Of a stretch of DNA of 52,338 nt, positions 2 to 52,338 are shown piece by piece. The position numbers and the translations under genes were made by a program. Numbering within the stretch: the stretch's first letter is position 1; every line of letters starts with the position of its first letter. This DNA is from Craspedostauros australis (Eukaryota), in assembly GCA_030167865.1 (NCBI GenBank), contig JALAGF010006363.1:1-52338 (forward strand), read 5' to 3'. The notes beneath the pieces were generated by a model. It was not told where the DNA came from. It saw only the letters and a list, made by a program, of their open reading frames with translations, and did not search any database.

Positions 2-3000
2 CAGTTCATTAAGGCAGTCTCGACGAAGGAACGACCCATCTACATGTTCCTCGACGATCTGCAGTGGTCTGCCGAGGTGGGCCTTAGCCTGATTGCCCGG
101 TTGGTAGCTGATTTCGGGTTGCAAAACTTCCTTCTGCTTGGTGCCATTCGTCAGGACACCAACCCGCATACAGATGAACCACTGGATCTCACTCCAGACC
201 ACCCGCTGGCGCGGTGCCTCGTCACGCCGTTGTCGTCAGAGGAGGGTGAAGACGGCACCCACAAAGCAGGTGGTCCCGATGATGCATCCGTTGTGACTTC
301 CACCACATCAATGTCCCAAGCCAGGAAGCGCCGCCCTCCGCGAACCCTCCAGCAGATCACGATCACCAACCTCGCGCTGGATGACATGACCGCATGGCTC
401 TCAAGCATGCTGGACTGCAACGACATCGAAGATCTATCCGAGAAGCTCCACGCCAAGACAGATGGAAACGTCTTCTTCACCCTGCAAGCTCTCGAAGAGC
501 TGGAGAGAAAGGACATTCTCGCCTTCAACTCCATTTCCCAGCAATGGGAGTGGAGCCTTTCCAACCCAGGGGATGACGACGACAGCAACGCCGGTAGCGC
601 CCAACTACCCATCAGCGATAACATCATCGGCATCATCGAATCCAAGCTGCGAGACCTTCCCATGCAGCTGCAGCAGGTGTTGTCCATTGCGGCCTACATC
701 CGATCGATGTTCGACATCTCGGTGCTGCATCGGGTGCTCGAAAGCGAGCGCAAGCACGTGGATGGAGAGATCGATTCCATGGCTCGCATCTCCTCCAAGC
801 AAGAACTCTCCAGTATGCTGGACCATGCGGTTCTGGAGCGTCTAATCTCCAACCCCATCGGTGGTACCAAATACTACTTCGCGCACGATCGCATCCAGCA
901 GGCCGCACAAGGCATGATCCCAGCCGGTGAGGCTCGCGACAAGCTGCGCGTGCGGATCGGTCACTGCTTGCTGCAGATGTACCGACGTATGCAGGCTCGT
1001 CTTCAAGAGGACGAGGAAGAAGAGCATGGCAACGATGTGAATCATGGGACTGACCACGAGCCCAAGAAGCAACGCAAAAGTCACCCACAAGGCAAGGCCG
1101 CAATGCCCTCCCAGTCCACAGACTCAGTAACGTCAACCGAAACATTCACTTCGACCTTTACTACGTCAGAAGTAGATGATGGGCTGTTGTTCGTGGCTGT
1201 GGACCACTTGAACACCGTGCAGACCAAGGACCATATGTTCTCCGTCATCATGAATCTGGAGGTTGGCGAGAAGGCCACAGAGATGGCAGCGCTCGAAGCA
1301 GCCGCCGGGTACTTGCGAAAGGCGCATGAAGCGCTGCAGCGAGTGAGAACTGGCTCATCTCCCAACACCTCCCCCAAGACCAAAGGGTCTACCAGAACCC
1401 AAGTCGCTGCCAGCTCATCGATCTGGGATAGTGATGAGCACTACGACATCTGCCTGCGGGTCTATCGGGCACGCGCCGACGTCGAGTTGTCGATCGGCAA
1501 CTACGAGGTCGGCTACAAGCTCTGTGAAGAGGTGCTAGAGAGAGCCAGATCACCGGACGACAAGGCGCTAACCCACTTCTCCATGGCCAGAGCCTTGACC
1601 AGGCAGGATCGCCACAGAGACTGCATGGAGATGGAGCTGCGTCTGCTCCAATCGTTGAAAGCGTTCCCCAAGCGATGGTACTCGCTGCACACTATGATGA
1701 GCAGGACGAAGGTCAAGCACTTCCTGAAGAACAACACCAACGAAGAGATCCTCGCAAGATCATGGATGACGGATAAGAAGAAGCTCACTGCCATGACGAT
1801 TGGTGCAGACTTCAACATGTGCACCAGTGCCACAAACAACGTGGACTTGGCCACCTTGAACTATTGCAAGATGCTGTGCACATCTATCAAGCACGGCATC
1901 TGCGCAGAGACAGGAAGCGCCTTCGGTGCATATGGACTTCTACTGAGTGGCACGAAAGAGCAAGCCCTGGCCCAGCGTTGTATGAAGATCGGCGACCTGA
2001 TCCTCGAGCAGGTCGATGGAAGGCATCTGGAAGGCATGTTCCGATTGACTTCCGCGACCTACGTCAACTCGTTCAGGTCCACTTTCGAAGATGCCCTGCG
2101 GGATCACAAGAAAGGGTATCGCCGCTCGATGGAGGTTGGAGAATTTGGCATTGGTATCCTCAATTACCAAAACTGCGTCATGCACGGACTTATGTATGGG
2201 CTGGAATTGAAGTCGTTGCACAAGGCAAACGAGGAAGCGCTTGACCAGCTGGACACTTACAAACTCAGGGCCTACGAGGGACTGTCAGACAACTATCGAG
2301 TCATGTTCAGGGTGATGTTGAAAGAAGATCCAATCGATTGGGACGAAATCGAAGCTTTATCCCGTCGCGATCCCACCGTTGAGAAGTTCGACCCTTCCAA
2401 TGCACTCAAGGACTGTACGATGTTCTACAGTCGAGGGTATTTGGCGCTCTTCCATCGGCGTTATGCAATGGCAGACCCTTTGTTCTCCAACTTCGTCTTC
2501 CTCGCCACGGGCGACCCATCAGCATTAGCTGCTCTCGCTGACACTTACATCGTGGGCGTCATCAATGCGGAACGATACAGGGAGACAGGGAATCAGCAAC
2601 ACTTAACAATCTTGCGCAAGAAAACCAAGAAACTGAAGAAGATGACCAAAGCCAGAGGACAAGCATGGATCCATCTAGTGCTCATCCTCGAAGCGGAGGA
2701 CCTCGCTGTCACCATGAAGAACAAACGGCACTCCAAGATTCAGGATGCCTACAACATCGCGATCCTCGCTGCAATCCGAGCTGGCTGTATCCACGATGCT
2801 GCCATGGTCAACGAGCTGGCAGGAGAGCACTACCTCCAGTGTGGTTCCGAGGACATGGCTGGCGACTACTTCGTGCACGCCGTCGACTACTACAAGGCGT
2901 GGGGTTGCAAGATCAAGGTGGACGACGTCATGCAGCGTCGCAAGAAGTTCCTCAAGAATGTCAACGACCCGAACCGCAAACGTCCAGAGGGTCTCACCGA

Positions 3001-3217
3001 CGACGGCAAAGGCAACTACCTCTTTGGAATCACCCGCGACACCTTCACCGGAGCGATCACCACAAGAGGCACAGGGATCGAAGCCTTCATCGATGCGAAA
3101 GACGGCCCTGAGGAAGGTGCCGGAGTGCTCGTCTTCGGATCGGAGCTCGGAGATGGCGTGGAGGGATCTGTGGGCCTCGATGAGGATGAGCTCTCCATCC
3201 TCACGGACATTGCATAA
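2..3217 (+). CDS. STAND-like (AAA_16/COG3899-type) ATPase with winged-helix and TPR-like helical region, copy 1; 5'-truncated by the window
   Basis: Frame is open from base 2 (QFIKAVSTKERPIYM...). Walker B MFLDDLQW, KTDGNVFF and YYFAHDRIQQAA motifs, and C-terminal A..NELAGEHY...A...Y..WG...KV motif. Colinear paralogue of 4471..8478. Confidence 0.85.
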   Translation, partial: QFIKAVSTKERPIYMFLDDLQWSAEVGLSLIARLVADFGLQNFLLLGAIRQDTNPHTDEPLDLTPDHPLARCLVTPLSSEEGEDGTHKAGGPDDASVVTSTTSMSQARKRRPPRTLQQITITNLALDDMTAWLSSMLDCNDIEDLSEKLHAKTDGNVFFTLQALEELERKDILAFNSISQQWEWSLSNPGDDDDSNAGSAQLPISDNIIGIIESKLRDLPMQLQQVLSIAAYIRSMFDISVLHRVLESERKHVDGEIDSMARISSKQELSSMLDHAVLERLISNPIGGTKYYFAHDRIQQAAQGMIPAGEARDKLRVRIGHCLLQMYRRMQARLQEDEEEEHGNDVNHGTDHEPKKQRKSHPQGKAAMPSQSTDSVTSTETFTSTFTTSEVDDGLLFVAVDHLNTVQTKDHMFSVIMNLEVGEKATEMAALEAAAGYLRKAHEALQRVRTGSSPNTSPKTKGSTRTQVAASSSIWDSDEHYDICLRVYRARADVELSIGNYEVGYKLCEEVLERARSPDDKALTHFSMARALTRQDRHRDCMEMELRLLQSLKAFPKRWYSLHTMMSRTKVKHFLKNNTNEEILARSWMTDKKKLTAMTIGADFNMCTSATNNVDLATLNYCKMLCTSIKHGICAETGSAFGAYGLLLSGTKEQALAQRCMKIGDLILEQVDGRHLEGMFRLTSATYVNSFRSTFEDALRDHKKGYRRSMEVGEFGIGILNYQNCVMHGLMYGLELKSLHKANEEALDQLDTYKLRAYEGLSDNYRVMFRVMLKEDPIDWDEIEALSRRDPTVEKFDPSNALKDCTMFYSRGYLALFHRRYAMADPLFSNFVFLATGDPSALAALADTYIVGVINAERYRETGNQQHLTILRKKTKKLKKMTKARGQAWIHLVLILEAEDLAVTMKNKRHSKIQDAYNIAILAAIRAGCIHDAAMVNELAGEHYLQCGSEDMAGDYFVHAVDYYKAWGCKIKVDDVMQRRKKFLKNVNDPNRKRPEGLTDDGKGNYLFGITRDTFTGAITTRGTGIEAFIDAKDGPEEGAGVLVFGSELGDGVEGSVGLDEDELSILTDIA

Positions 3218-4288
3218 GGGATATGTGTGAGCATTCGGTGGAAGTGATCTGTCTTCCTTGCTCTTGTGGCAGATTGAGGAATCAGCACACAGAATAGTAG
3301 AACGATGGCCAACGGTAATTGGTAATAGGCAACATTAATAGTAATAATAATAGTAATGGTCATGACAGCAGTTGCAACACGAGTAAACCAAACCATCGTG
3401 GTCGGAGGCCGCCAACACCTGCCCTGCGGCTCCTTTTGTCGCCTTCGAACCATGCAACAAGCCTCTCCGCTGAAGCAGAGCAGAGCATGCAATTGACTCG
3501 CATGTACCCGTGGGTGGCTCCTCCGAGTTGCGTGCAAACCGATGAACCGGATGATGCGCCATGGTGCTTTTCACAACATGTGGCTTGCGGATGGTCGTTG
3601 ATGACGTTGGGTATGCAAGACAACACGAAGAACACGTTGGGTGTCGTCAATTTTTTGATTGGAGTGTCCTTGATGTTGTTGATCGCACGCATCTTCTAGT
3701 GTGTCCGTTTGTGATGTACTTCAAAAGAACATAATCATCCTCATATTTTACAAATTATTGTAATTTACCGCAACTTTGTATATTACGATTAGATCTTGCA
3801 TTCAGTCGATTGCTTTTGATTCATGAGTGACGCCACGATACAGGATTGGTTTCAGCAAGGTGAGCGACGAAGAAAAGTGTCACGCTCATTCTTCCACGGT
3901 GGTGGTGGCATCTGGCTCGTCGTCGCACGAGTTGTGGGTTGGGAAAGTTTGTCCTTTTGTGTCGCTGAGGTTAAAGCGGTGTTGCCCAAGACACAAGTCA
4001 TTCATTCGCTGCGAATCCGGGTAGGAAATGGCCGCGCAGAGGCAGAGGGGCACTTGGTCACGAGATGCCATCCTTGCCGCAGAGCTATGTGGTCTTGACT
4101 TCGGTGTCTCTGGGTCTGAAGTTCGGCACGAAGGTGTGGGACTCTCTCTCTTCCTCTTGGGTGGTTGCCGTGTGCAAACCACTCGCAGCCGTCCGTTCTC
4201 GTCCAGCACATACTACTACAAATGGGTAGATGAACGCGTCGCTGTGCAAATCAATCGGCAACAAGGATTATTCATCCCAATCTCTCCC

Positions 4289-4304
4289 TCTCTCTCTCTC
4301 TCTC
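4289..4304. repeat. (CT)n microsatellite
   Basis: Run of ctctct... upstream of the 4471 start. Confidence 0.8.
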
Positions 4305-4470
4305 TTCTGCTCCGGAGGCCGTGCCCCCCAAAGCACAATCTGGCGCCAAGAGCAACGATGGAGCATCATCTTGTTCTCCTCTGTGAACACCCCATCGCCC
4401 ATCGCCCAGCTCTAGCACGCTCATACCAATACATACGTGCAGCTCATATGTGATATAGTCGTAATACATC

Positions 4471-7400
4471 ATGGAATCGCATCATGCATCAAATCCATCT
4501 GGTTCACCAAGCGGCGTTGCTCCCTGGAGGCAAACGCCGCGCTTTCTTGGCAGAGAGGCAGAGCTCGAGCAGCTCAAGGCCTTCAAGGACAAGGTGATAG
4601 GTGCGCACCAGAAGTGTGCTCCTCCCTCAGAGGAACCATTGAATGAGGAGGGCAAGGCAACGCCGTCGCCACTCAAACCCAAACCATCGCCAACCAAAAT
4701 CCTCGATGTGTATCCAGCCATGCTGATTTGGGGTGCCAGCGGCACAGGAAAGTCTGCCCTTGCCGATCACTTCTTGGAGACATGCTGCATCTGCAACACT
4801 GACATCGACCAGAAGCAGCAGCAGCAGCATAGCAATGATCAAGCAGCGACAGCCACAGCTTGCTCCTGCTGCTACGTCCTTCGCGGAAAGTATGACGAAT
4901 ACACGGGTCAGAGCGATCCATTCTCAGCCATCGTGCAGGCCATTCAGGACTTCACAGGCCAGCTTCAGCGCGGATCCAAGGAAGAACTCGATCGGATCCG
5001 CGAATGTGTCAGAGTGACCTTTCCCACTGGCGGGCTTCGTCCGTTGGTAAACGTGGCACCGTCGCTTTCCGTTCTCTCACCCACGGCATTGCGAGGAGAT
5101 GACTCCGTCATGAGCCACTCCGCCAGCCATCGCAGCGACGATTGCAGCGCAAGCCTGAACAGCAGCCAGGCCCAACGCAACGACGGGTCCTCTTTGCCAG
5201 CATCGAGTGCAGTGCTCACGGAGAAGACCTGGAATCAGCTCAAGTATATTTTTGCTCAATTCATCAAGGCGGTCTCGACGAAGGAACGACCCATCTACAT
5301 GTTCCTTGACGATCTGCAATGGTCCGCCAACGTCGGGCTGGACCTGATCGCTCACATGGTGGCAGATCCGGGGCTCAAACACTTCCTCCTGCTGGGCGCC
5401 ATCCGCCAGACCACGAATGCGCACGACGACCAACCGCCAGAACTCGCCCCAGACCATCCCCTATCGCGCTGCCTCGCCAAGCCATTGTCACCAGACGAGG
5501 ACGATGATGACTATCACGACACGGCAGCTGGCGGTGATGCTGATGAGGGATCAATCAGAAGTGCGTCCACGGCAAGATCTCAGGCCAAGAAACGTCGTCA
5601 TCTACGAAGTCTCCATCAGATCACGATCAACAACCTCACACTCGCCGAGATGACCGCGTGGCTGTCGATCATGCTGGACTGTGGAGATATTGGCATCCTG
5701 TCCGAGAAGCTCCATGCCAAGACTGACGGCAACATATATTTTGCGTTGCAAGCACTCGAAGAGCTCGAAAGAAAGCAGATCCTTGGCTTCAGTCCTATTT
5801 CTCAACAATGGAAATGGAACCTCTTGAACACAGAAAGTGATGAAAGCAGCAATGCCAGCAGCGCTCAGTTACCCATCAGCGACAACATTATCGGCATCAT
5901 CGAATCCAAGCTACGGGACCTCCCAATGCAGCTGCAGCAGGTGCTGTCCATCGCAGCGTACATCCGATCGGTGTTCGACATCTCGGTGCTGCACCGGGTG
6001 CTCCGGAATGAGTGCAAGCACGTGGATGGTGCCATTAATACCATGGATGGCATATCGACAACGCAAGAGCTTTCGGTCATTCTGGAGCAGGCAGTTCTGC
6101 AGCGTCTCATCTCCAACCCCATCGGTGGCACCAAGTACCACTTCGCGCACGATCGCATCCAACAGGCGGCGCACGGTATGATCCTAGCTGGCGAGGGTTG
6201 TGACAAGCTGCGCTTGCGGATCGGTCGCTGCTTGCTGAAGATGCACCGATGCATGCAGCTTCACCTTCAACAGGAAGGAGAGAATGATGGTGCCGATCCT
6301 TCCAGCACACACCATTGCAACGAAAAGAGTAGAGCCTACACACGAGACAAGACCACAATGTCTTTCCAGTCCGCAGATTCCTCATCATCCAGCGAAATGT
6401 TCAGTTCACCTTCCTCCATTGCGGGTGTTGACGATGGTCTCTTGTTCGTGGCTGCGGACCACTTGAACAGCGTGCAGACCAAGGATCACATGTTCTCAGT
6501 CACCATGAACCTGGAGGTCGGTGAGAAGGCGTTGGAGATGGCAGCTCTGGAAGCGGCCGTCGGATACCTCCGAAAGGCGCATAGTGCGCTGCAGCTTGTG
6601 AAAATCGTTCCACCCCCCAAGACCTCTCTCAAGACTACCAGATCTGCTGGAAGCCAAACTGCAGCGAGCTCATCGCTCTGGGATAGCGACGAGCACTATG
6701 ACGTCTGCTTGCAGGTCTACAGCAAGCGTGCTGACGTCGAGCTGTCCCTGGGCAACTATGAGGTTGGGTACAAGCTCTGCGATGAAGTGCTGGAGACAGC
6801 AAGGTCTTTGGAAGACAAGATGCCAACGTACTTCTCCATGGCCAGAGCGCTGGCGCGGGAGAACCGCCACGCGGAAACCTTGGCTGTGGAGATGCGTCTG
6901 CTCCGATCGTTGAAAGTGTTCCCCAAGCGATGGTACGTGCTCCACATCGCCAAAGCCATGATGAAGATCCGGCGCTTCCTCAAGAACAACACGAACGAAG
7001 AGATCCTCGCACGGCCGTGGATGACGGATCCGAAGAAGACCTTCGCGATGAAGATATGCAGCGACATGTCGATATGTACCAAGGCCGTAAGCGATCTGCT
7101 CCTGGTGGTCCTCAACCTCTGCGTGATGCTGACCAAGACCATCAAGTATGGCATCTGCGCTGAATCGGCAAATGCCTTGATCACATACAGCCTGGTGGTC
7201 GGCGGTATGGGAGATCAAGCCATGGCCGAACGTTGCATGGATCTCGGCCATCACATCCTCGAAAGACTGGATGCGAAGACGCTGCAAGGTCACTTTCGGT
7301 TCATCGCAGGCACTTACGTCATTCCATACACCCTTCCCTACCCTGAAGTTCTGCGGCAGCACAGGAAGGGCTATCTGGATTCGATGGAGGTCGGAGAGTT

Positions 7401-8478
7401 CGATATTGGGATTCTCAACTACCAAGGTGCTATCCAGATGGGATACTTCTATGGCATGGAGCTGGGTCCGCTGGCCAAGGCAAACAACAAAGTCCTTGAC
7501 ATGTTGGAGAGCTACAAAATCAATGCCTTCCGTGGCATGGCGGACAACTTTCAGTTCTTGTTCGCCTCCTTCATGGGAGAGGAGCAGATCGATTGGGCTG
7601 AGATTGAAACGTTGTCCCGCCGCAACGTCAGCACCGAGAATTTGGATCCGTCGGAGTGCCTTCACAACTGTATACTGTTTTCCACTCGGGCGTACCTCTC
7701 CTTGTATCATCGTCGATACAGAATCGCGAACCGGCTAATGGCCAACTTTCTCGTGGTCTGCTCGGGAGAACCGGCACTGCAGGTCAAGATGGGAGAGGCA
7801 TTCTTGATGGGGCTGACAAATGCACAGAAATACAGGGACACCGGAAATCGGCGGTACTTGGCAGCCATGCGCAAGCTGATAAAGAATGCCCACCAGCTGT
7901 TGAAGGCCAGAGGCCGGGTCTGGATCCACCTGTTGTTCATACTGGAGGCCGAAGAGCTCGCGATCAGCACGAAGAACAAACGGGATCCCAAGATCAAGCA
8001 TGCATACAACCTTGCGATCCTCGCGTCGATAAAAAATGGACGGCTCCACCACGGTGCCCTTGCCAACGAGCTGGCGGGTGAGCACTTCCTCGAGCATGGC
8101 TTCAAGGACATGGTCGGAGACTACTTCCTGCATGCCGTCGACTACTACATGGCGTGGGGCGGTAAGAGCAAGGTTGACGACCTCGTGCAGCGCCACAAGA
8201 AGTACCTGAAGACCCTGAACGATCCGAACCGCAAGCGTCCGGAAGGCCTCACCAATGACGGCAATGGCAACTACCTCTTCGGGATCACTCGGGACGCCTT
8301 CACCGGAGCCATCATCACCAGATGCGCGGAACTCGATGCCTTTGCCGATCGCTCGAAACTCAGCGCCGGTGATGGATCTCTGAACGTGCTAGTGCACGGG
8401 TTGGGGATGGGAGACGGCGTAGATGATCCCGCGGATGTCGATGGAGATGACGTGTCCGTTCTGACCGGCATGATGTAA
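4471..8478 (+). CDS. STAND-like (AAA_16/COG3899-type) ATPase with winged-helix and TPR-like helical region, copy 2 (1335 aa, no kinase, GAF or HisKA module seen)
   Basis: FLGREAELEQL, Walker A IWGASGTGKSAL, GKYDEY...PFSAI, Walker B MFLDDLQW, KTDGNIYF, FAHDRIQQAA. Single intron-free ORF. Confidence 0.88.
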   Translation: MESHHASNPSGSPSGVAPWRQTPRFLGREAELEQLKAFKDKVIGAHQKCAPPSEEPLNEEGKATPSPLKPKPSPTKILDVYPAMLIWGASGTGKSALADHFLETCCICNTDIDQKQQQQHSNDQAATATACSCCYVLRGKYDEYTGQSDPFSAIVQAIQDFTGQLQRGSKEELDRIRECVRVTFPTGGLRPLVNVAPSLSVLSPTALRGDDSVMSHSASHRSDDCSASLNSSQAQRNDGSSLPASSAVLTEKTWNQLKYIFAQFIKAVSTKERPIYMFLDDLQWSANVGLDLIAHMVADPGLKHFLLLGAIRQTTNAHDDQPPELAPDHPLSRCLAKPLSPDEDDDDYHDTAAGGDADEGSIRSASTARSQAKKRRHLRSLHQITINNLTLAEMTAWLSIMLDCGDIGILSEKLHAKTDGNIYFALQALEELERKQILGFSPISQQWKWNLLNTESDESSNASSAQLPISDNIIGIIESKLRDLPMQLQQVLSIAAYIRSVFDISVLHRVLRNECKHVDGAINTMDGISTTQELSVILEQAVLQRLISNPIGGTKYHFAHDRIQQAAHGMILAGEGCDKLRLRIGRCLLKMHRCMQLHLQQEGENDGADPSSTHHCNEKSRAYTRDKTTMSFQSADSSSSSEMFSSPSSIAGVDDGLLFVAADHLNSVQTKDHMFSVTMNLEVGEKALEMAALEAAVGYLRKAHSALQLVKIVPPPKTSLKTTRSAGSQTAASSSLWDSDEHYDVCLQVYSKRADVELSLGNYEVGYKLCDEVLETARSLEDKMPTYFSMARALARENRHAETLAVEMRLLRSLKVFPKRWYVLHIAKAMMKIRRFLKNNTNEEILARPWMTDPKKTFAMKICSDMSICTKAVSDLLLVVLNLCVMLTKTIKYGICAESANALITYSLVVGGMGDQAMAERCMDLGHHILERLDAKTLQGHFRFIAGTYVIPYTLPYPEVLRQHRKGYLDSMEVGEFDIGILNYQGAIQMGYFYGMELGPLAKANNKVLDMLESYKINAFRGMADNFQFLFASFMGEEQIDWAEIETLSRRNVSTENLDPSECLHNCILFSTRAYLSLYHRRYRIANRLMANFLVVCSGEPALQVKMGEAFLMGLTNAQKYRDTGNRRYLAAMRKLIKNAHQLLKARGRVWIHLLFILEAEELAISTKNKRDPKIKHAYNLAILASIKNGRLHHGALANELAGEHFLEHGFKDMVGDYFLHAVDYYMAWGGKSKVDDLVQRHKKYLKTLNDPNRKRPEGLTNDGNGNYLFGITRDAFTGAIITRCAELDAFADRSKLSAGDGSLNVLVHGLGMGDGVDDPADVDGDDVSVLTGMM

Positions 8479-9030
8479 AAGCGCACGCGAGACGCATAAG
8501 TTGGACTCGAATGGATGATTTGACGGACTCGCACAAGTCGATGCCGTACGACCATGGCACCATCACATTTGGGATGGAGACTGCCGACAGTGCGCTTGCC
8601 TCTTTCGACAATTTTATTACAGTAGAGTAAGTTGGAAGAGTGCATATATAATACAATAGATACGAGTATAATGATACGCAGTGTTTGAAGCGTGATTGTG
8701 TCGGTCTGTAGGTAGGTACATGGTGGTTCTGTTGGGGGTGGGCGCAGTAGCGCAACCAGTCCCTCCCGTCAATCCGTCTCTCTCTTTCTCTCTGGTCTGA
8801 TGATAAGTCTAATGTCGTCTGGCCTTCGTTCTTACTCGTAGTGTTCGCCCATCTCGATCTTGAACTTGTTGTTCGCGCCACGTAATTTTCCAAGCATGCC
8901 GAATCTTTTTGTGTCCCAACACAACACAAACTCACCGTCAGCATTCACGTGAGCATCCTCTTTCTCATTAATACCACAGAGCACAGCAGCACAACTCCGA
9001 TTGCGTCCATAGCACTACTCTACATCAACC

Positions 9031-15906: not shown

Positions 15907-17619
15907 TCAAGTGCAATGCGAAGAATCACCGGGGTAAAGAATCGCATGGATCCGATGCATGTAATCGGGATCCTTGATGAGATGGAAGGCGATGCTGTCG
16001 GGAGCTATCGTCGACGTGATTGACTGCGGCGCGGCGCTGCCCGTGTCAACTGCCTCGACAATCATGCCTGCGACGTGCGGTGCCGTTCCCACAGGAATGC
16101 TCTGGATCCATCGCAGCTGTTCAATCCACGAAAAGTCTGTGGTGTTGTCGGCAAATGATGCCGTGGTGTGCTGTGCGAGTGTCTTTGGATCGTAATGATG
16201 GTATCTCGACTGCCCATTGCGGTTGCGCGTGTCATAGCCAAAGACATTCTCATGCCACAGGCACTTGCCCATGAAGAGGTCCTCGGCGCTGTGCACCTTG
16301 TCGTGCGGGCATCTCGCAGTTTCTGCTTGCAATGACTTATCGACGAAGAGCGCGAGCGCGGCGCGGTTGAGCGTGTATCCAGGTCCGCCCCCATTGTAGT
16401 AGAACTCAGGACTTGGCAAGCTCTTTGGATTGCGCCATGTTGGTCGGATCCACCCGCCAAGGTACAACGGCATGGTGTCGTCGTGTGCGTGCGCGTCCAG
16501 GCCAATGCCGTTCACAAAGGCACGCAGGTTGTCAACGACGACGTAGGTGTCATCGCCGCAAACGTGAAAGTGGCTGTAGTCATCCAGAAAGTTGCTGTGG
16601 ACGTAAACAAGCGTGCTCGTGACCTTCTGCCAAATGGAATCGTACGATCCCTGCTTGCCCTTGTGGGGAATGTAAACCGTGCCAGTCGATGGATCTGTGA
16701 AGGTGGACGATGCCAAGAATCCATCGCATTTGGGTGCCCAGGTGTTGCGGATGGCTTCAAGTCGTTCTCTCGTACCATGGTAGGTGTAAACGATGCACAT
16801 GATTCTGGCAGCACTGCGGATGATAGAGTGATTGCGAATGCGGTGGGAAGCACCGTCTTGTGTGGCACGAGTGCGCGCAGGAGTCGACAGCTGATCGCGG
16901 ATCTTCTGAAGCGCTTGGTATCCTTCCATTCCTTCATGACCCCGTCCAGGCGATGCACAAACGACCGCGCGGCTTGGTTTGGGGCCATCCGGAGACGTGG
17001 AAACCCCATCGCTCTGCGTTGCTGCATTTAGCAGAACCTTGGGGTTGTGGACGTAGCCCCAATTCCCTGCTGCATCCACCGCCCCACCAAAGGGATGCGG
17101 CCGAGGTGGTTTCATGGCATCGCGACACGAGGCAGCGAGTTTCGATTTCGGCCTTTGAGATCGGAGACAGTTGATGACATCGCCGAGGTTCGCGGATTGG
17201 TTTTGAAGCACCGTGCCGTTTGAGTTGCCGTCCTCGACAGCGCTCTCCTGCCTGTGGCCATTCGATGGATGCCGTCCTGATGGCGACGCAGTGGAAGATG
17301 AGGACGGACAGAGGCGCTCTATATCACCTCGACATGCCACCAAGAAGTTGTTCTTCGCCGCATGCGCAGACTGGTTCAGACTCGCTCGATCGGCGGGAGT
17401 GCTGCGAAGGGGGGTGGCGTCCAAGGGAATCGTCACCGACCTGATCGACGCGTTCAGCATCCCTGTCACAACGATGCAGAGACATACGAACAGCGCGTAC
17501 TTCTTCCATCTGTGCTTGACCGTGCTGACCACGTGGCTGTTGTCGTTATTGCTGCTGTTATTGCTGCTGCTGCGCTTGTGATTCTGAAATAGCTTTCGTC
17601 GGGCATGACGTTGAATCAT
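15907..17619 (-). CDS. GT31 glycosyltransferase, core 1 beta-1,3-galactosyltransferase (C1GalT1/Fringe-like), type II membrane, with a Cys-rich GLG1-like repeat in the stem
   Basis: RIMCIVYT, TWAPKCDGF, IWQKV, HVCGDDTY, PLYLG, YNGGGPGYTLNRAAL, AEDLFMGKCL, SIAFH. N-terminal TM YALFVCLCIVVTGMLNA. First ATG at 17619. Confidence 0.88.
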   Translation of the reverse strand: MIQRHARRKLFQNHKRSSSNNSSNNDNSHVVSTVKHRWKKYALFVCLCIVVTGMLNASIRSVTIPLDATPLRSTPADRASLNQSAHAAKNNFLVACRGDIERLCPSSSSTASPSGRHPSNGHRQESAVEDGNSNGTVLQNQSANLGDVINCLRSQRPKSKLAASCRDAMKPPRPHPFGGAVDAAGNWGYVHNPKVLLNAATQSDGVSTSPDGPKPSRAVVCASPGRGHEGMEGYQALQKIRDQLSTPARTRATQDGASHRIRNHSIIRSAARIMCIVYTYHGTRERLEAIRNTWAPKCDGFLASSTFTDPSTGTVYIPHKGKQGSYDSIWQKVTSTLVYVHSNFLDDYSHFHVCGDDTYVVVDNLRAFVNGIGLDAHAHDDTMPLYLGGWIRPTWRNPKSLPSPEFYYNGGGPGYTLNRAALALFVDKSLQAETARCPHDKVHSAEDLFMGKCLWHENVFGYDTRNRNGQSRYHHYDPKTLAQHTTASFADNTTDFSWIEQLRWIQSIPVGTAPHVAGMIVEAVDTGSAAPQSITSTIAPDSIAFHLIKDPDYMHRIHAILYPGDSSHCT

Positions 17620-18206
17620 AGAGTAGCCGTATGCATGTGGATACTGAATGGGTGGTGAGCAAGTTGTGAGCAAGTTGTGGAAGGTATGGACAGTGAGCGA
17701 TGGATAACAGCGCGTCAATCAATGCTCGAGGCACGTGGTCGATGATGCTCGCTTGATGATTCTGAATGAAGGGAGAGAGAAGCAAGCAAGAAAGAAAGAT
17801 CGCAGCAAAGCACAAAGACGCGTCACTCTCTTCGCGTTGTTGTGCCTCATGTTTTTGTTCGTGTTGTTCGCCAAACGAAATGTTTGACGGAAGCAAGATA
17901 TTTAGTCCCGCCACCGTTCAATCATGAATCATCACCAACCACCAACAGCAACACCAACAAAACGAGAAAAACTGATCGACCATGACGTTTTCGTTTCGCA
18001 AGACAACAACACGACGGCTTCAAAACTGAAACACCACGCTCACCGCGAATGGTGTTACGATCGATACGTGCGAACGCAGCACAATCTCACTGAACTCTGC
18101 TCTACTCGACCATACTCTCCGGGTGATCTCTGGAATACAACACTCCACTTGATTTCACACAAGAACATCTCCATTCACGGCCTCCATTCAACCAGGAACA
18201 AGAACG

Positions 18207-18749: not shown

Positions 18750-20270
18750 TGGGTAACAATGGTGGTGGCTGTGGGGTTGCCGTCGTCAAACGCGCGGGTG
18801 GCGAGGCGGTCTGCCTGCCATGGCCGTCTCTTCATCTTCCAAAGACACACAGAGTGGACAGTTTCCATTCGTCAACGCGCAGCAATGGCAATGGATGGAG
18901 ACACCCTGCGCACTCGTATTCGTACGTCCGGCTGATACCATTGGTTGACCTTAGTATTGGTATTCACGGCGTGGATTGTGCCAAACGACATCCTTGGCAG
19001 ATACGTACGAATACGGCAGCCAACATTCACTACTCTGTGATTTAGTCTGCAGAAGGTCTCGAAGAACACCGCCATCACCAACAACAGTAGTAGCAGAATG
19101 ATCTGTTGAATGGTCGACACAATTGCAGCAGTGAACCATACGAAGAACTGTGGCTGTGATAGAGATCAAACGAAGATGTAAGAAGCGTTCTTGCGACTTC
19201 GGCGCTTGTCAAAGCTGGAGAGAGTGCGGATAGAGCATTCTACCTTCATTGCAATTCCACGGAGGAGACGCACCTGCCTCTCTGCCCCTGCTTGCGGCCC
19301 GCGCCCATCTAATTTAGTTCAGAAGTCTACTCAGCTTTGTTGTGCTCGCTGTTGGTGTCGGTGACCGCCGATTGTTCTTCGGAAACTCCAGTGCCGCTCA
19401 TTGGATTTTCTATCGGATGAATGATCGGATGGTTGTTCCCTTCTGCGGAGCGTTGTTACGATGATACTGACTCGTGTTTGATTCGCGTTTGCAACGGCTG
19501 AATGGACTTGACGGTTGAGGTTTTCGGTGACTGGCGGTCATCGGGACATCAACTCACTTATTGTTCTTGGATCGGTTCATAAGTGACATGCCGACAAGAT
19601 ATGGCGCCAAACCAACAACAACGACGATACACATGAAACACTGCGTCCACAATTTTGTTGTCCAAACAAGAAATGTGTTGGCTGTGTGCACGTGATTGTG
19701 ACCGTGGAGAACGGGAGAAACGAAGAACTTGTCACATCGATTGTCACACATGGGGACGACCCCAACAGGATCCCCTCCGTCATCCACACTCCGACACAAC
19801 CAGTCAGCCTTCCATGTCACCCATCATGCCGTCCTCCACAGTGATGTCCACCAATTTGGCCAACACGTAAAAAGTGCAAACGATTCACCATCTTGTTTCT
19901 CCGTTCGCTCCTTCTTGCATTCCATCTTGCATGTACCAGCGCTGTGTTGTGCTGTGCCTGGGGTGAATGAGAAAGTGAAGAAACCTCAAGGAGAGCATCT
20001 GCAAGAACATACACGAGAACATCCACCATCTCGTTCTTCTGCACACTCTTTGCCTCGTTCCACAAGACGACTGCCTCCTGACACACAGCCACAAAGTTGT
20101 TCGTGACCTCCAACATTGCGCATACGTATACTACATACAGTTGAGTTCTGGTCGCACGAGTAGCTCGTCCACAACCATTCGCCCACATCAACCCACTCGC
20201 ACCATACCAAACGTACGTAATAGTATCATCACCACCAACATCACCACCAATATCAGGAACACCAATCAGC

Positions 20271-21263
20271 ATGGCCGAAGTAACAGACACCGCAGGATCA
20301 GGCGATGCAACACCAGCCGCCATGGAATATGAGCAGTCCTATGAGAACACCGCGGAAGCACAACCCAACGATGACCTCGTTCTGCTGGAAGACGGCAGGA
20401 CGATCGAGATCCAGGATGGCGGAGACGGATGCGTCGAGCTGACCGACGGCAACGACGCCTTCGGTGTCATGTCGACCCCGCCAGCCATGGATGGCGAGCC
20501 ATCGGAAGCCGATGAGCAAGAGCGCGTGTTCGCCGATGAGCCAAAGAGCAGCGGCGGCAAGCGAAGGAAGATGTTCGCGCTCTACGTCTTGTTGGCGATG
20601 GGATTGATCGTCGGTGTCATCACGTATTCCGTTCGCAGAAATGGTGGATCCTCGTCCTCATCAGCGCGGAGTGAAGTTGCAGGCGCGATCGGCGGCGAGA
20701 CGTCGTCCAGCAACAACAGTACCGACAATCAAAATAGCACGACGTCGCCTCCATCTGTCACACCAGATAGTGGCGTGGACGATGGTGGCAACACTACCGC
20801 AACGACAGACCTCCCAACCTCCGTCGTGACCGCCGTCAACACCACCAGCCCAACGGCGATGCCATCCGATGCTCCAACCCAAGCACCGACTGATGCGTGC
20901 GTGTCGGCCATCACAATCGACGTCCCCTGCCTCGTTAACCCGACCGTCATCAGTGCCGCATTCACGAACTGCGAACCCCTGACGAATGACTGGCTGGGCA
21001 TCTACCCTGCTCCCACCACGCCGCTGGCCGCCATGGGCGACGACTACGATGCATGGATCTGGTCGTGCGGATCCCAGGACTGCGACGACGCGTCGTCCGG
21101 AAGCCAATTCAATCTCGAGGTGCCGGCCCTGCCCAACGGTGACTATCAGCTTTTCCTGCTGCGCAACACAGACACCGGAGACGCGCCGTTCCCACTCATC
21201 GCCGCGTCCTCCGTATTCCAGATCAACGACGCGGAATGCGACTTGCTGAGAACGCAAACGTAG
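20271..21263 (+). CDS. Type II membrane protein, Ser/Thr/Pro stalk and C-terminal 6-Cys DWxGIYP domain (family member B)
   Basis: Acidic N-terminus, KRRK plus TM MFALYVLLAMGLIVGVITYSV, about 88-aa S/T/P stalk, then C...C...NCEP..DWLGIYP...GDDY..WIWSC...C...GDYQLFLLRN...C. Confidence 0.85.
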   Translation: MAEVTDTAGSGDATPAAMEYEQSYENTAEAQPNDDLVLLEDGRTIEIQDGGDGCVELTDGNDAFGVMSTPPAMDGEPSEADEQERVFADEPKSSGGKRRKMFALYVLLAMGLIVGVITYSVRRNGGSSSSSARSEVAGAIGGETSSSNNSTDNQNSTTSPPSVTPDSGVDDGGNTTATTDLPTSVVTAVNTTSPTAMPSDAPTQAPTDACVSAITIDVPCLVNPTVISAAFTNCEPLTNDWLGIYPAPTTPLAAMGDDYDAWIWSCGSQDCDDASSGSQFNLEVPALPNGDYQLFLLRNTDTGDAPFPLIAASSVFQINDAECDLLRTQT

Positions 21264-32483: not shown

Positions 32484-35183
32484 TTACCGCCGCTTCCGAC
32501 GTCGCACATGCGAACTGTGACGATTGGAAGATGCTGTCGCCTTTTCAGAAGTGTCTGGCAGGATGTGCGAGGGGAAGGTAATGTCCGGTCGCAAGGGTGG
32601 CTGTTCATCGTACCAATGTCGCAGCAGTGACCAGGCATCGTCGAGATCTGGCAAGCGGGCGAAGATGCCATCGGATATGGTCGTGCTGCGATGGCCACCG
32701 GCACGTCGGCTGTGCTTGAAGTGCAAGTGATCCTTCAGGATGATGTACAGGATGGTCGCGGCGAGGACGAGCCATGCCACAAGCACCGTGAATGTATCGT
32801 AGAGTTGCTCGTCACCATCTGCGCGGCCGCCGCCCACTCCTGCCAAGGTCTGTTGAATGGCGTGCACCATGTCCTCGTGGCTCGACCAAGCACCATGCTG
32901 CGCCTTCTGTCGATCGGCAACGGTTTCCAGAAGACCCAACGCCGAAAGCAGTCCTCGCATTGGCGATCGTTCGTCATGAGGGACATCAGCTTGGCTTCGT
33001 GGTTTGACGCTAGCAGATGCCGTGCTGTGGTTGCGGATTGCGTGGACGAGCTTCACCGTGAATTCTTCCGTGAGCTGCTTGGCGACATCATCGGAGCCCT
33101 TCGTGATGACCTCCCTTGGTGGCAGCGAGCTGGACTGCGAGATGCAGACTATTGGAACGCCCAGGAGTCCGAGAATGTCGCTCTCCATGTCGCAGACCGT
33201 GACGACCGCATGGACGTAAGGACTCCGACGCAAGTAGGCATCAATAACGTTGTAGGATTTCTCCGGCTCGACGAACCACGGGATGGTGAGCGAGCCCTCG
33301 GCGTCGACGATCTGCTGGCTGCCAAGATGCTCGATCCAGTAGACTTGCATGTACTTGGCACTGTTTTGGCACGTCGCAGGGTCCCACTCGCAGTCGTCGA
33401 TGTTGTTGATGGTCATTCTCGCCGCGGTGAGGCCGTCAATGAGATTTCGCGCCGTGGAGAGGGAGATAGTCGGCGGTTGGACGAAGAGGATGCATGGCTT
33501 GACGCTGGCGAGGGATGGCTTCTTGAGAATCTGCCTCCGTTTGCTGCTGTGTCTGCTCGCCAACGAGTCATTGACGCAGGGAATGCATGGTGGTTGCAAC
33601 GGCCCCACGCCGTGCACCACTGTCGATCGATCGCGATTGTACATTGACACCATCTGTTGTGTTCGCGATACACTTGCAGCTGTGACTATGCTGCTGGTGG
33701 CCAAGCTTGCGCCGTTGCTGTTGCTGTTGCTGTTTGTGTTGCTGTTGGAGTCGCTGTTTGCATTTGCTTTGGCATCCGTGTTGGATATGGTGGCAGTTGC
33801 TGCATGCATGAGGTTCCCGGCATGCGCATCTGGACCGGCATGACTGTGATCCACGAATGGTGATGGGACATCGGACGGCAAGGCGAAGCCAGCAATGGTG
33901 GCGACGACTGGTTGGAAGTACTGGAACGGAACACGGATTCGATCCAACTGCAGATCCCGTCTGATCCAGTTGAGTCTCATGAATGCGGACGTGAGCACGA
34001 TGCTTTGAAATCTCTGTTTCATGATCCGGTATGCGCGCGTGATGATGTTCCATTCCTGCGGCGCCCAGCCGGGGTCGTTGTGAACGTACGTCATGAGAGC
34101 ATCGTAGGCTGAGAGTGTGACTGTTGGAACGTGCACAGTCTCCGCGAAGAGCAGCCCGCCGACGAAGTTCGTATCCATCAACAGAAGATCCGGTATCTGC
34201 TGCTGCTTCTCTTGCTGCTGCTGATCTAATAGCTTGGGCCATTGACGTGACCACACCGTCTGCACGATATGAAAGTCGTCGTAGGCCTGATTCAACGTGC
34301 AATACTGAAATGGTGTACCGCCGCCTTCGGCGGTGTTGCACGGTTGCGGTCCCACGGCAACGGAGATGGCATGAAAGCGACTCCGAGAATTCTTCTCAAA
34401 CGAACACGGCACGCCCGCGAGAACATCCTCCCGGAAGGTGGTGGTCTGGTTGGGCTCGTTCTCCAAATGCAGGGCGGTGATGCTCCAGCCCTTCATGAGC
34501 ATTCCCGCGAGTACGGACACGAAGTCAATCCGCACATCCGTCTGACGCAAGATAACGAAGGCACTGCGCTGCTGCTGCGCAGCTGTGCCATCTGCTATTC
34601 CATCCGTCGTCGGCTCCGGAGTGTCTGGATTCGCGTAGAGGAAGGAGAGCATGCGGCTGCTGTCCGAGCAGGTCCGACACGTCGCATTTTGTCTCACCGA
34701 TTCAAGAATATCGGCAGAGTCCATCTCTCCCATGTGTTCCATGATGGGATCCAGGGCGTCGCCGAAGCATCGTCGGCCCTTGATCTGCTGCTGCGGTTGA
34801 TGATGCTGATGATGCTCAGCTTGCTGTTTTTGATAGATTTCACGCAGCTTCTCTCGATCCTGAAGCTCTGGTTCCGGTGTGGCGTGGTTCCTCATCAAGA
34901 ATTCGGACAGCTGCTCATCCAACTGATCTCCCAGCCCCATGAAGGCCGCACCGGAAGTGACCGCGTTCGCAGATGCTGCCGCTGCTGCTGCGACGGAGGC
35001 CGACGAAGCAGACTCCGCAGGCCAGCTGGAAACTCTCGATATTGCGTAGGCGGCCGCAATCACTCCCCATCCCACGAGGGCACCAAACAAGGACAGCATC
35101 CGCCACCGTCGCGAAGCGTCGTCGCCTCCATACCTGTAAGCGTAGGGCGCAGGAGATGGACGCCATCCTCTCCAATCCGTCAT
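32484..35183 (-). CDS. Divergent GT-B/UDP-glycosyltransferase (GT1/UGT)-like protein with N- and C-terminal TM helices
   Basis: PDLLLMDTNFVGGLLFAETVHVPTV, LNWIRRDLQL, VVHGVGPL and LLGVPIVCI match the UGT layout. 899-aa intron-free ORF. Confidence 0.65.
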   Translation of the reverse strand: MTDWRGWRPSPAPYAYRYGGDDASRRWRMLSLFGALVGWGVIAAAYAISRVSSWPAESASSASVAAAAAASANAVTSGAAFMGLGDQLDEQLSEFLMRNHATPEPELQDREKLREIYQKQQAEHHQHHQPQQQIKGRRCFGDALDPIMEHMGEMDSADILESVRQNATCRTCSDSSRMLSFLYANPDTPEPTTDGIADGTAAQQQRSAFVILRQTDVRIDFVSVLAGMLMKGWSITALHLENEPNQTTTFREDVLAGVPCSFEKNSRSRFHAISVAVGPQPCNTAEGGGTPFQYCTLNQAYDDFHIVQTVWSRQWPKLLDQQQQEKQQQIPDLLLMDTNFVGGLLFAETVHVPTVTLSAYDALMTYVHNDPGWAPQEWNIITRAYRIMKQRFQSIVLTSAFMRLNWIRRDLQLDRIRVPFQYFQPVVATIAGFALPSDVPSPFVDHSHAGPDAHAGNLMHAATATISNTDAKANANSDSNSNTNSNSNSNGASLATSSIVTAASVSRTQQMVSMYNRDRSTVVHGVGPLQPPCIPCVNDSLASRHSSKRRQILKKPSLASVKPCILFVQPPTISLSTARNLIDGLTAARMTINNIDDCEWDPATCQNSAKYMQVYWIEHLGSQQIVDAEGSLTIPWFVEPEKSYNVIDAYLRRSPYVHAVVTVCDMESDILGLLGVPIVCISQSSSLPPREVITKGSDDVAKQLTEEFTVKLVHAIRNHSTASASVKPRSQADVPHDERSPMRGLLSALGLLETVADRQKAQHGAWSSHEDMVHAIQQTLAGVGGGRADGDEQLYDTFTVLVAWLVLAATILYIILKDHLHFKHSRRAGGHRSTTISDGIFARLPDLDDAWSLLRHWYDEQPPLRPDITFPSHILPDTSEKATASSNRHSSHVRRRKRR

Positions 35184-35847
35184 GATTCGCGATTCCTTGG
35201 TTGCGACGGCGCAGCACTGGTGGTTCAGCCCACTTCAGCACTGCAGCAGAGTATCCGTATTCTACTCCAATCTCCAGCTTGTACGATGTTATGCTTGCTC
35301 TTGCTCTTGCGCTTTTACTGTGAGAGCCCAAGAGGAGGCAAGGATTCGTCGGAGTGCTCCCACGAGGACTCGTGTGTGACTTATGATGATTGTGTCGCAA
35401 GAAGTGGGATGCCTTTGGATTCTCTCTCTGTGCGTGGAGTGTGTGTGGAGAGGCAGGTACTATTCGGACTCACATCATCATTGCTTCTTCTCCCTCTCTT
35501 TCGTGGCGTTCTGTTTGTTGTTTGTCTGTTGTTCCCAGATACCATCAAGGAAGAAGTACTGTCGAAGACTCATTTTTGAGTTCATATGGTATACCATATC
35601 AACTGAGATACTGGGACAATTCGTTCAACAACTCAGACATGCGATATACTATTGGATTGGTATCTACATTGTGTTGTGGGAGTTCGCGCCAAAAATAATG
35701 CGCTGACAAGCCTCACCAATGACGAGAACACCTCATGGTGAGTTTCTTCACTTCTTCTCCTTCCTCCTTTTTTGTCACCGTGGCGGTGGACATCTCGTGC
35801 GCGAACGCGTTCTCGTATTGGTACTCTGCACACATTTGCAACATAGT

Positions 35848-50791: not shown

Positions 50792-52338
50792 ATGACCATC
50801 TCTGAAAACGCACGTCTCCTAGAGTCCGATTCCCCTCAAGCCAGGTACGAGTCCGGAGTTGCCTTTCACAATGGCATGGATCACGGCTCTCAGCGCCAGC
50901 CGTCAGCAAGTGACGGTACGAAGCATGTCGATTATCCCAACGGTAGCAACGGTAGCAACGGAAGCATTGGAAGCGACGTTCTCGAGATCGACGTCGATGA
51001 TGCTATTGGAATGATCGGTATGGGACGCGTCCAATCCGAGGTGATGCTCTGCACTGGCATGTGCTTCGTTTCGACCAGCATCCAGATCTTCTTGGTTTCA
51101 TTCCTTAACATTGTGCTCGAAGCCGAGTGGGACCTCACAGAGCGCGAGATGGACACCGTGTTCTCCATCTCCTTTGCTGGCGCCTGCGTCGGAGCGCTCT
51201 TCATGGGGCATCTGGCGGATTGCATCGGACGCAAACCAGTCTTCGTAATCACCGCCGCCATCAACGCAGTCTGCGGCGTCCTCACAGGCATGGTTGACGA
51301 TGTCCGCTGGTTCTTCGTCATCCGATTCATCGTTGGAATCGGCGTGGGTGGACTCGCCATCCCGTACGACACGCTTGCTGAAGTCATCCCAACCTCCCAT
51401 CGCGGAACGAAAATGACGTACATGCAGTTCTTCTGGACAGCGGGGACGATGCTGTCACCTCTCATCGCCAAGTTCACGCTTGGAGTCGGCGACGACAACG
51501 CCTGGCGGTGGTTCGCCTTCTCTTGTGCTATGCCCTGCGTTCTTTGCTTGATCATTTGCCTCGTCTGGGTCCCCGAATCCCCGCGCTGGCTATTGGCCAA
51601 GGGGCGGCACGAGGAGGCTGTCGAAACATTGAGAAAGTTGGCCTACAAGAACGGCAAGGATGGCATGATGATGTTCCCAGCTCATACCGAGCTCGTGGTG
51701 AGAGAAGCAGAGGCAGAGGGCGATGGTTCTTGCTCCAAGCTGCTGTCGCCAAAGTGGGCAATGACCGTGCTGAAATTGTGTTCCGTGTGGTTCGGCTTTT
51801 TCTCTCTCTTCTACGGCAGCTTTCTCCTGATCACATTTCTATTCTCAAGTCAAGGTTTCGATCAGGGTCACTCCGGCTTCAATGGCAGGTACGACGACAA
51901 CAACAACGATAACGACGGAAGCGACAAATTGTATGACTTCAACTACGATGCCATCTTCATCAGCACTGCCGCGGAGCTGTTCGGAAGCTTCGCCTGCATC
52001 GCCGTCGTCGACAGACTTGGCAGGATCATGACCCAGTCTTTGACGTCCTTTCTGGGAGGCACATGCTGCCTCATCCTCGGATTCCTGAGCGAATCAGACG
52101 GCGTGCCGAAATGGCCATTCGTCGCTCTCGGCTTTACCGTGAGATTCTTCATGGCAGCCGGGGATGCCGCAACGTGGCTCTATGCTTCCGAGGTATTCAC
52201 CACTGAGGTGAGAGGAGCGGGACATGGTGCTGCAAATGCTATGGCGCGACTGGGTGCGTTCCTCGTCCCGTACGTCGTCACCCCGGGAACCTCGGCATCG
52301 AACGTCGGTCTCAACTTGTTCCTGATCGGTACGATCAC
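50792..52338 (+). CDS. MFS transporter, SV2-related/SVOP-like; 3'-truncated by the window (absent from the ORF track)
   Basis: Manual translation from ATG 50792: DVDDAIGMIGMGRVQ, GHLADCIGRKP (MFS motif A), RFIVGIGVGG, YDTLAEVIPTSHRG, VPESPRWLL, VDRLGR, ASEVFTTEVRGAGHG...ARLGA. Confidence 0.9.
   Translation, partial: MTISENARLLESDSPQARYESGVAFHNGMDHGSQRQPSASDGTKHVDYPNGSNGSNGSIGSDVLEIDVDDAIGMIGMGRVQSEVMLCTGMCFVSTSIQIFLVSFLNIVLEAEWDLTEREMDTVFSISFAGACVGALFMGHLADCIGRKPVFVITAAINAVCGVLTGMVDDVRWFFVIRFIVGIGVGGLAIPYDTLAEVIPTSHRGTKMTYMQFFWTAGTMLSPLIAKFTLGVGDDNAWRWFAFSCAMPCVLCLIICLVWVPESPRWLLAKGRHEEAVETLRKLAYKNGKDGMMMFPAHTELVVREAEAEGDGSCSKLLSPKWAMTVLKLCSVWFGFFSLFYGSFLLITFLFSSQGFDQGHSGFNGRYDDNNNDNDGSDKLYDFNYDAIFISTAAELFGSFACIAVVDRLGRIMTQSLTSFLGGTCCLILGFLSESDGVPKWPFVALGFTVRFFMAAGDAATWLYASEVFTTEVRGAGHGAANAMARLGAFLVPYVVTPGTSASNVGLNLFLIGTI

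Follow-up and report, generated by a model that had tools for sequence, protein, structure and literature searches.

Tandem sensor-only STAND-TPR genes in the diatom Craspedostauros australis, a candidate NLR-like family of bacterial HstK-type descent

STAND proteins (ATPases of signal transduction that have numerous domains) are recognised by Walker motifs A and B, an N-terminal hhGRE motif and a sensor-1 arginine, and include MalT, the maltose regulator. We know of no diversified multigene arrays of MalT or PH0952, and to our knowledge the means by which diatoms sense viruses, oomycetes, chytrids and algicidal bacteria are still largely an open question. Another STAND lineage is the COG3899/HstK clade of multi-sensor kinases, which Leipe 2004 reportedly labelled SWACOS. 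Here we describe two tandem genes, copy 1 and copy 2, encoding a STAND ATPase followed by tetratricopeptide-like repeats (TPR) in the diatom Craspedostauros australis. The window analysed is the whole contig JALAGF010006363.1 (52,338 nt), in forward coordinates throughout. The two genes appear to belong to a repertoire of sensor-only STAND switches that expanded within the lineage of this raphid pennate diatom, derived from HstK-type proteins, resembling NLRs (nucleotide-binding leucine-rich repeat receptors), with a ligand that is most likely non-self; taken whole, we give this reading about an even chance.

In the model proposed for MalT and PH0952, the protein rests in a closed ADP-bound form and an inducer drives multimerisation (PMC6468293, accessible text). 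The NB-ARC-TPR candidate receptors of the brown alga Ectocarpus evolve by birth-and-death, with positive selection mostly on terminal branches (PMC3341825, available sections), and in fungal TPR NLRs the selected or polymorphic sites lie on the concave TPR helices (PMC4986451, available sections). In Thalassiosira pseudonana, COG3899 was noted, as an annotation, in three genes, fused to another diatom-specific domain; the accessible text describes neither an expanded effector-less family nor selection (PMC3478156). The genes presented here share with the COG3899/HstK kinases a homologous STAND and TPR core with the same Walker B and HD motifs, but lack kinase, GAF, PAS, histidine kinase, cyclase and phosphatase modules; they further differ by a GNI or GNV in place of GNP, disordered insertions, some 100 or more copies, fast central repeats and new terminal motifs. 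Like the Ectocarpus genes, they are stramenopile STAND-TPR genes evolving by birth-and-death, yet the 24 Ectocarpus genes, in the sections available, combine NB-ARC with one exon per repeat and exon shuffling, whereas the diatom genes are single long open reading frames (ORFs) with a COG3899-type ATPase and non-identical repeats. Fungal NLRs carry NACHT or NB-ARC, have effector or amyloid domains at the N-terminus and often possess near-identical repeats; the diatom family shows none of these traits. In contrast to NLRs generally, there is no NB-ARC or NACHT and no N-terminal effector or adaptor.

The two copies are same-strand paralogous ORFs, the direct tandem arrangement that an earlier note on this DNA had proposed (Table 1), and 647 of their 1068 aligned residues are identical. 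Copy 1 is truncated on its 5′ side by the contig end. Identity reaches 217/282 (77%) in the STAND core and 134/182 in the first repeats, falls to 129/292 (44%) in the central repeats (residues 859-1150) and is 95/140 in the last repeats and tail. The earlier hand counts of 47/48 and 27/62 identical residues in two segments proved exact on alignment. However, the first segment, described as post-ATPase, is residues 464-511, the start of the winged helix inside the STAND module, and the second is not the most divergent, the least similar 62-residue window having 19 identities. When the identity pattern was shuffled 2000 times, no 48-residue window with 47 matches arose. The 14 synonymous differences within the 47/48 segment rule out recent gene conversion as its origin and argue that selection has kept it. 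Pfam searches of both copies returned AAA_16 (E 1.6e-16), a weak TPR_12 match and nothing else: neither copy has a kinase, GAF or histidine kinase domain, as the earlier note had stated for copy 2, nor an NB-ARC or NACHT match, and an NCBIfam search gave one weak TPR-type match far under the cut-off. Copy 2 begins 24 residues before its FLGRE motif, in substance the start of about 20 residues suggested earlier.

AlphaFold2 models built on paralogue alignments covered residues 17-598 (pLDDT 78) and 652-1285 (pLDDT 88.9) of copy 2. The first, the STAND model, matched (VIA-align) MalT 8bob (Z 14.4, rmsd 4.5, 329 aligned residues), PH0952 6mfv (Z 14.3, rmsd 4.3, 292), the NB-ARC of NRC1 6s2p (Z 14.1, rmsd 4.2, 245) and resting NRC2 (Z 13.7, rmsd 4.7, 334), all four over the nucleotide-binding domain (NBD), helical domain 1 (HD1) and winged-helix domain (WHD) at rmsd 4.2-4.7. 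Cdc6/Orc1 tied in Z (13.9), but its three-domain alignment was only at rmsd 10.6. The second model is an all-helical solenoid whose nearest folds are TPR proteins; Foldseek gave no match reaching E 0.001, which is usual for solenoids, and the best hit of a PDB sequence search had an E of only 0.19. The models thus predict an NBD-HD1-WHD STAND fold followed by a TPR solenoid, in agreement with the architecture first proposed. This is also the organisation of MalT and PH0952, from which the diatom proteins differ by an identity of only 14-15% and by having no DNA-binding output. The hhGRE, Walker A, Walker B and sensor-1 arginine signatures of STAND proteins are intact in copy 2 and conserved across paralogues, and the HD motif reads FAHDR in both copies. 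In the GxP motif, Gly-Asn is invariant in a 45-row alignment, and the proline is kept in 3/32 paralogues and 14/17 bacterial relatives. Some copies depart from this pattern: L042 (G000:C6000) has an HD context altered to FVHDS, and several others of the 32 sampled have degenerate HD motifs. Two cysteine clusters on the + strand of copy 2, CCxC (4783-4794) and CSCC (4861-4872), lie on either side of a disordered insertion within the nucleotide-binding domain and persist throughout the close clade; they are possibly a zinc site.

The nearest homologues are COG3899-type, and the bacterial ones show 21-27% identity, with a best E of 1e-40 over the STAND and TPR core. All 120 listed homologues have AAA_16, and in 115 of them the core is accompanied by additional signalling domains. 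A FastTree tree (88 sequences, 935 columns) was rooted arbitrarily on a bacterial sequence. In it, the 71 sequences of non-bacterial type, of which most of those from outside this genome are presumed eukaryotic, group into a single clade (0.999) that lies within the 17 bacterial COG3899-type proteins, which bears out the kinship already proposed; 28 of the 32 own paralogues form one clade (0.999) that includes two outsiders. Stauroneis constricta, Epithemia clementina, Cylindrotheca closterium and Nitzschia sp. supply the closest named relatives, and Bacillariophyta make up most of the best Atlas cluster, in line with the diatom-like host supposed from the letters alone. Judged from sequence, the family descends from bacterial COG3899/HstK proteins of the kinase-STAND-TPR-GAF-output type and has lost both output ends. 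A C-terminal query found at least 145 matches in this genome (150 scored of 288 candidates); because these include duplicated graph nodes and probable alleles, the family size, which had gone unnoticed earlier, is given only as an estimate of about a hundred or more copies per genome. The part of the family retrieved comprises 56 complete ORFs with a Walker B motif.

None of the 25 own paralogues scanned has an output domain (kinase, GAF or other), and NB-ARC or NACHT gave only sub-threshold matches, in three of them. Among relatives from outside, four of the seven scanned have a kinase domain; P0219, P0228, P0233 and P0246 show a weak N-terminal kinase match and no C-terminal output, and are possible intermediates of a stepwise loss. 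Such kinase-bearing relatives would also be expected if an output domain lay on an upstream exon missed by stop-to-stop ORFs, in which case the genes would not be effector-less. We consider this very improbable, since the 1253 nt between the copy 1 stop and the copy 2 ATG contain no kinase-sized ORF, paralogues open with matching Met-Glu/Asp starts, and many protein-database relatives of 1050-1150 aa begin at most about 40 residues before the hhGR motif, one of them labelled a complete transcript. Compared with bacterial relatives, the diatom proteins have long disordered insertions. Two distant paralogues, L094 and L095 (G000:C4359), have highly acidic N-termini of 400-600 residues and basic C-terminal tails. 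Another, L067 (G000:C2407), has an in-frame stop after helical domain 1 (L067:3807-3809) and is a probable pseudogene; an apparent frameshift in a further paralogue coincides with unresolved sequence and was left out of the pseudogene tally.

Conserved terminal motifs, also absent from the earlier note, appear from the alignments to occupy the sites of the lost output domains. In place of the GAF and histidine kinase modules, the C-terminal end is mostly a disordered tail of about 100 residues. It closes, after a variable disordered linker, with an acidic-S-V-L-T-D motif in 45 of the 56 complete ORFs (49 under a relaxed pattern), even at less than 30% overall identity; its spacing presumably resembles that of a primed casein-kinase-1 site. 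The corresponding DNA pattern has 33 matches in the genome and 0 when reversed. Three of the 33 encode another peptide; 20 of the 30 true matches lie in listed family contigs, and the other 10 comprise seven firm family members, one weak member and two without family assignment. The motif is absent from the 12 other ORFs of the window (8482 residues). At the other end, paralogue N-termini are of low complexity with a short motif at most, GxEFYDDGY being found in 26/56 complete ORFs and in relatives from other genomes; its pattern has 59 genome matches versus 0, a part of which was checked for family membership. The 33-residue tail of the window's subclade evolves at an omega (dN/dS) of 0.10, and all 23 of its matches are in family loci. 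Sharing of an amyloid-type motif with a separate effector gene was not found for this tail (23/23 family) or for the C-terminal motif (27/30 firm family). Other subclades (L082, L087, L091; L043, L044, L045) have conserved tails of their own after the last repeat, unrelated to that of the window.

Upstream of the window, where the earlier note had suggested looking for further copies, the array probably continues through the 569-nt segment at the window's start. Contigs C3050 and C5358 carry candidate 5′ halves of copy 1, where by inspection the enzyme domain is absent too, and C3050 has 604 bases in common with C3427 and C3454, each holding two further copies. Because exact shared segments link the window start to C3050 and then to C3427 and C3454, the pair is probably the end of a longer array of at least four copies. 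On the other side, the last 1052 nt of the window (51287-52338) overlap C5466 at 100%, and this contig carries a close relative of copy 1, inverted, about 7.6 kb past the window end. The interruption of the array at exact shared segments of 338-1052 nt could suggest an assembly artefact, in which collapsed or chimeric repeats would produce both mosaicism and apparent selection. We find this hardly credible: copy 1 and copy 2, lying on one contig, have diverged at roughly half of the synonymous positions, paralogue ORFs are uninterrupted over 1300-1700 codons, and the selection signal described below survives per-segment trees.

Along the gene, the nearest neighbours of a paralogue change, and some tracts are 100% identical among paralogues. 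For 12 full-length paralogues, the STAND and central-repeat trees reject each other, with log-likelihood gaps of 98 and 332 (approximately unbiased test, p 1e-95 and 0.046); because of this conflict, sensors appear, as far as a fragmented assembly can tell, to have been reassorted onto ATPase modules. Clean four-fold sites of the pair differ at 27/52 positions in the central repeats and 49/103 in the STAND module (p 0.54). An apparent rise of dS in the central region of the pair (1.64 vs 0.91) was traced to multi-hit codons and discarded, the clean four-fold sites being alike.

Codon tests were performed with custom codon-model code on 14-17 close paralogues, in 11 segments with one tree per segment. 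The ATPase and the end repeats are under strong purifying selection. Omega is 0.15 in the STAND module and 0.27 in the central repeats of the pair; across the whole clade the three central segments show 0.28-0.31 and the eight remaining segments 0.09-0.19, and it is, in two young subclades, 0.42 in the central repeats, 0.12 in the STAND module and 0.17 in the flanking repeats. In these young subclades, model M2a improves on M1a in the central repeats (p = 0.0009, 5% of sites at omega 4), with p values of 0.29 for the STAND module and 1.0 for the flanks. The central signal holds with trees per 45 codons (p 0.001) and per 30 codons (p 0.004), and none of 35 neutral simulations with recombination, in which trees were switched every 15 codons, reached the real statistic of 11.6 (maximum 6.8). 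A class of sites at omega 2.3-4 is thus placed on recent branches of the young subclades. TPR ligands contact positions 2, 5, 6, 9, 12 and 13 of a repeat (PMC1261162, available sections). Within the central repeats these groove positions vary more than the outer face (p 0.015); the end repeats show no such difference (p 0.6). On recent branches, omega is 0.57 at groove positions and 0.24 on the outer face (p = 0.00014); inner helices of the central repeats change at roughly 2.4 times the rate of outer helices, the average still being below 1, and 13 of the top 20 candidate sites lie on inner helices against 5 on outer ones (p = 0.047). With moderate confidence, these results point to recent diversifying selection on the central repeats.

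Several observations weigh against this interpretation and the wider reading built on it. In 60-codon sliding windows, omega of the pair is below 1 everywhere, with a maximum of 0.64, and the pair alone therefore cannot show positive selection. Across the whole clade, M2a is no better than M1a in 11/11 segments, and M8 improves nominally on M8a in a single sensor segment (p 0.02) and likewise in a single winged-helix control (p 0.025), but these p values do not survive 11 tests. The young-subclade test was selected after these null results, some of the young sequences may be alleles, and the STAND control in the same subclades gives an M8 p of 0.006 for 2% of sites. The groove omega of 0.57 is significantly under 1 (p = 8e-5), non-groove positions of the same inner helices are equally fast (0.65), and on deep branches the groove (0.29) hardly departs from the outer face (0.25, p 0.21). 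Repeat registers were assigned manually, on secondary structure and conservation rather than coordinates, and only an inner-helix bias of the variable sites is claimed, not a mapped surface patch. In nine pooled paralogues, four-fold divergence is higher in the central repeats (0.54 vs 0.40, in 33 of 36 non-independent pairs), so that part of the central contrast reflects older sensor ancestry or a homogenised remainder. In addition, the GxP proline is replaced in 29/32 paralogues, copy 2 lacks GxEFYDDGY, which has decayed in the clade of copy 1, and two Thalassiosira genes annotated as multi-sensor multi-kinases respond to silicon starvation, a non-immune context (PMC3478156, accessible text). 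The selectively diverged sensor put forward in the earlier note hence stands for the faster central repeats, the inner-helix bias and positive selection in young subclades, and fails for the pair, which shows purifying selection only, and for the whole-clade M2a test.

The null whole-clade tests and the pooled four-fold contrast, together with mosaic neighbours sharing 100% identical tracts and a correlation of pS with pN (synonymous and non-synonymous differences) across windows of the pair (rho 0.50, p 0.02), would also agree with neutral birth-and-death and gene conversion, the central repeats being less constrained and less homogenised without any adaptive diversification. We nevertheless regard this as rather unlikely. 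Neutral conversion sits poorly with the synonymous changes inside the 47/48 segment, the clean four-fold sites of the pair do not differ between regions, and relaxation predicts neither inner helices that outpace the solvent-exposed outer face nor a class of sites above omega 1, which the recombining neutral simulations did not reproduce. The earlier note had singled out a uniform dN/dS with synonymous divergence tracking the protein pattern as the mark of gene conversion alone; omega is not uniform, and four-fold sites do not track the protein pattern in the pair but partly do so in the nine pooled paralogues.

By analogy to MalT and PH0952, the diatom proteins would rest in a closed ADP-bound form, and a ligand bound in the central groove would release the switch, allowing the ATP form to multimerise. 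More speculatively, the multimer could cluster the disordered ends, whose short terminal motifs may then recruit a separately encoded effector or kinase; displayed in this way, the motifs would stand in for the lost fused outputs. The ligand most likely differs between paralogues and is most likely a non-self molecule, such as a parasite, virus or bacterial protein, which would be the likeliest driver of the recent positive selection. Any immune role is likewise putative. The same switch and variable groove could instead serve endogenous or environmental ligands (metabolites, partners, mating or self/non-self cues) in signalling that is not immune. In favour of this, the family descends from bacterial kinases of general signalling, one of the top fold matches, MalT, is a STAND-TPR protein with no immune role, and groove omega is raised yet below 1; moreover, diatom genes of this annotation are up-regulated in silicon starvation according to the available sections of PMC3478156. 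This alternative seems to us unlikely though still plausible, as a class of sites at omega 2.3-4, sensor swapping, tandem arrays and a broken copy are more readily explained by an arms race than by ligands that stay fixed.

Of the traits typical of NLR families, clusters, recombination and inner-helix acceleration are seen here, and positive selection in young subclades only. By analogy, the family may work as an NLR-like sensor and evolve like the TPR NLRs of brown algae and fungi, but by its domains it is neither an NLR nor an HstK-type kinase. A broader proposal, which we advance as possible though doubtful, is that an immune repertoire resembling NLRs arose independently in pennate diatoms from a bacterial STAND-TPR core of HstK type, belonging to an ATPase clade other than NB-ARC and NACHT. 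Both catalytic outputs would have been deleted, terminal motifs would engage a shared unlinked effector, and around a hundred recombining sensors per genome would watch the cytoplasm for parasite or virus proteins. The large, clustered and recombining family offers candidates for pathogen detection by diatoms, with specific residues in the sensor and specific terminal motifs. If it is immune, NLR-like receptors would have arisen independently once more, here out of a signalling kinase and with no fused effector. If it is not, it would be a large unannotated sensor family whose database label is merely 'predicted ATPase'. Our literature search, confined to the main text of openly accessible papers, found no account of the family as a receptor repertoire. 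The main text of the Seminavis genome paper does not mention it, though its supplements could list it, and the family is not covered in the accessible parts of PMC12803021, PMC13236601 and bioRxiv 10.64898/2026.01.04.697583.

Table 1. Features of the two STAND-TPR copies and their surroundings in the window.
Feature	Position	Strand	Remarks
Segment that recurs at 100% identity in contigs C3050, C5358 and C1886	1..569	+	Assembly-graph joint; array continues upstream
Copy 1, STAND-TPR ORF	2..3217	+	1071 aa; open at 5′ end; begins just before Walker B
Copy 1, 47/48 segment	596..739	+	Start of the winged helix; differs from copy 2 by 14 synonymous changes and 1 non-synonymous change
Copy 1, TPR-like solenoid	1172..2938	+	Position transferred from copy 2 through the alignment
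Copy 1, central fast-evolving repeats	1790..2665	+	Putative ligand groove
Copy 1, conserved tail motif	2969..3067	+	Specific to subclade
Copy 1, acidic-S-x-L-T-D motif	3185..3208	+	C-terminal
Inter-copy spacer	3218..4470	.	Longest + strand ATG ORF 141 aa; none kinase-sized
Copy 2, STAND-TPR gene	4471..8478	+	Complete single ORF, 1335 aa; N-terminus shorter than in closest paralogues
Copy 2, hhGRE motif FLGREAE	4543..4563	+	Start of nucleotide-binding domain
Copy 2, Walker A GASGTGKS	4732..4755	+	Intact
Copy 2, Walker B MFLDDLQW	5299..5322	+	Intact
Copy 2, sensor-1 strand LGAIR	5392..5406	+	Near-invariant Arg at its end
Copy 2, GxP-equivalent of helical domain 1	5728..5739	+	GNI (Pro lost)
Copy 2, winged-helix domain	5866..6264	+	MHD-equivalent FAHDR at 6142-6156
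Copy 2, TPR-like solenoid	6427..8193	+	Some 12 pairs of helices; mean pLDDT of the model 88.9
Copy 2, central seven repeats	7045..7920	+	Residues 859-1150; fast-evolving, inner-helix biased
Copy 2, subclade tail motif	8224..8322	+	Short beta strands predicted; segment omega 0.10
Copy 2, DDVSVLT motif	8446..8469	+	C-terminal; relaxed pattern in 49/56 complete paralogues

The neighbours of the pair (9031-52336) look like housekeeping genes: MsrA (9031), AAA_26 (11596), a DBP10-type helicase (26359), an importin-beta-like protein (35723), a VRR-NUC protein (40179), an NSRP1-like protein (48251) and an MFS transporter (50750). A partner gene common to family loci was rejected, as the flanks of six loci share only an assembly overlap (by sequence comparison, with flank ORFs unannotated). 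Three long ORFs have no Pfam match, at 15907-17718 (−, 603 aa), 20145-21263 (+, 372 aa) and 32484-35234 (−, 916 aa). CT-rich tracts at 4286-4305 and 8774-8800 lie about 170-250 nt 5′ of the start codons of copy 2 and MsrA.

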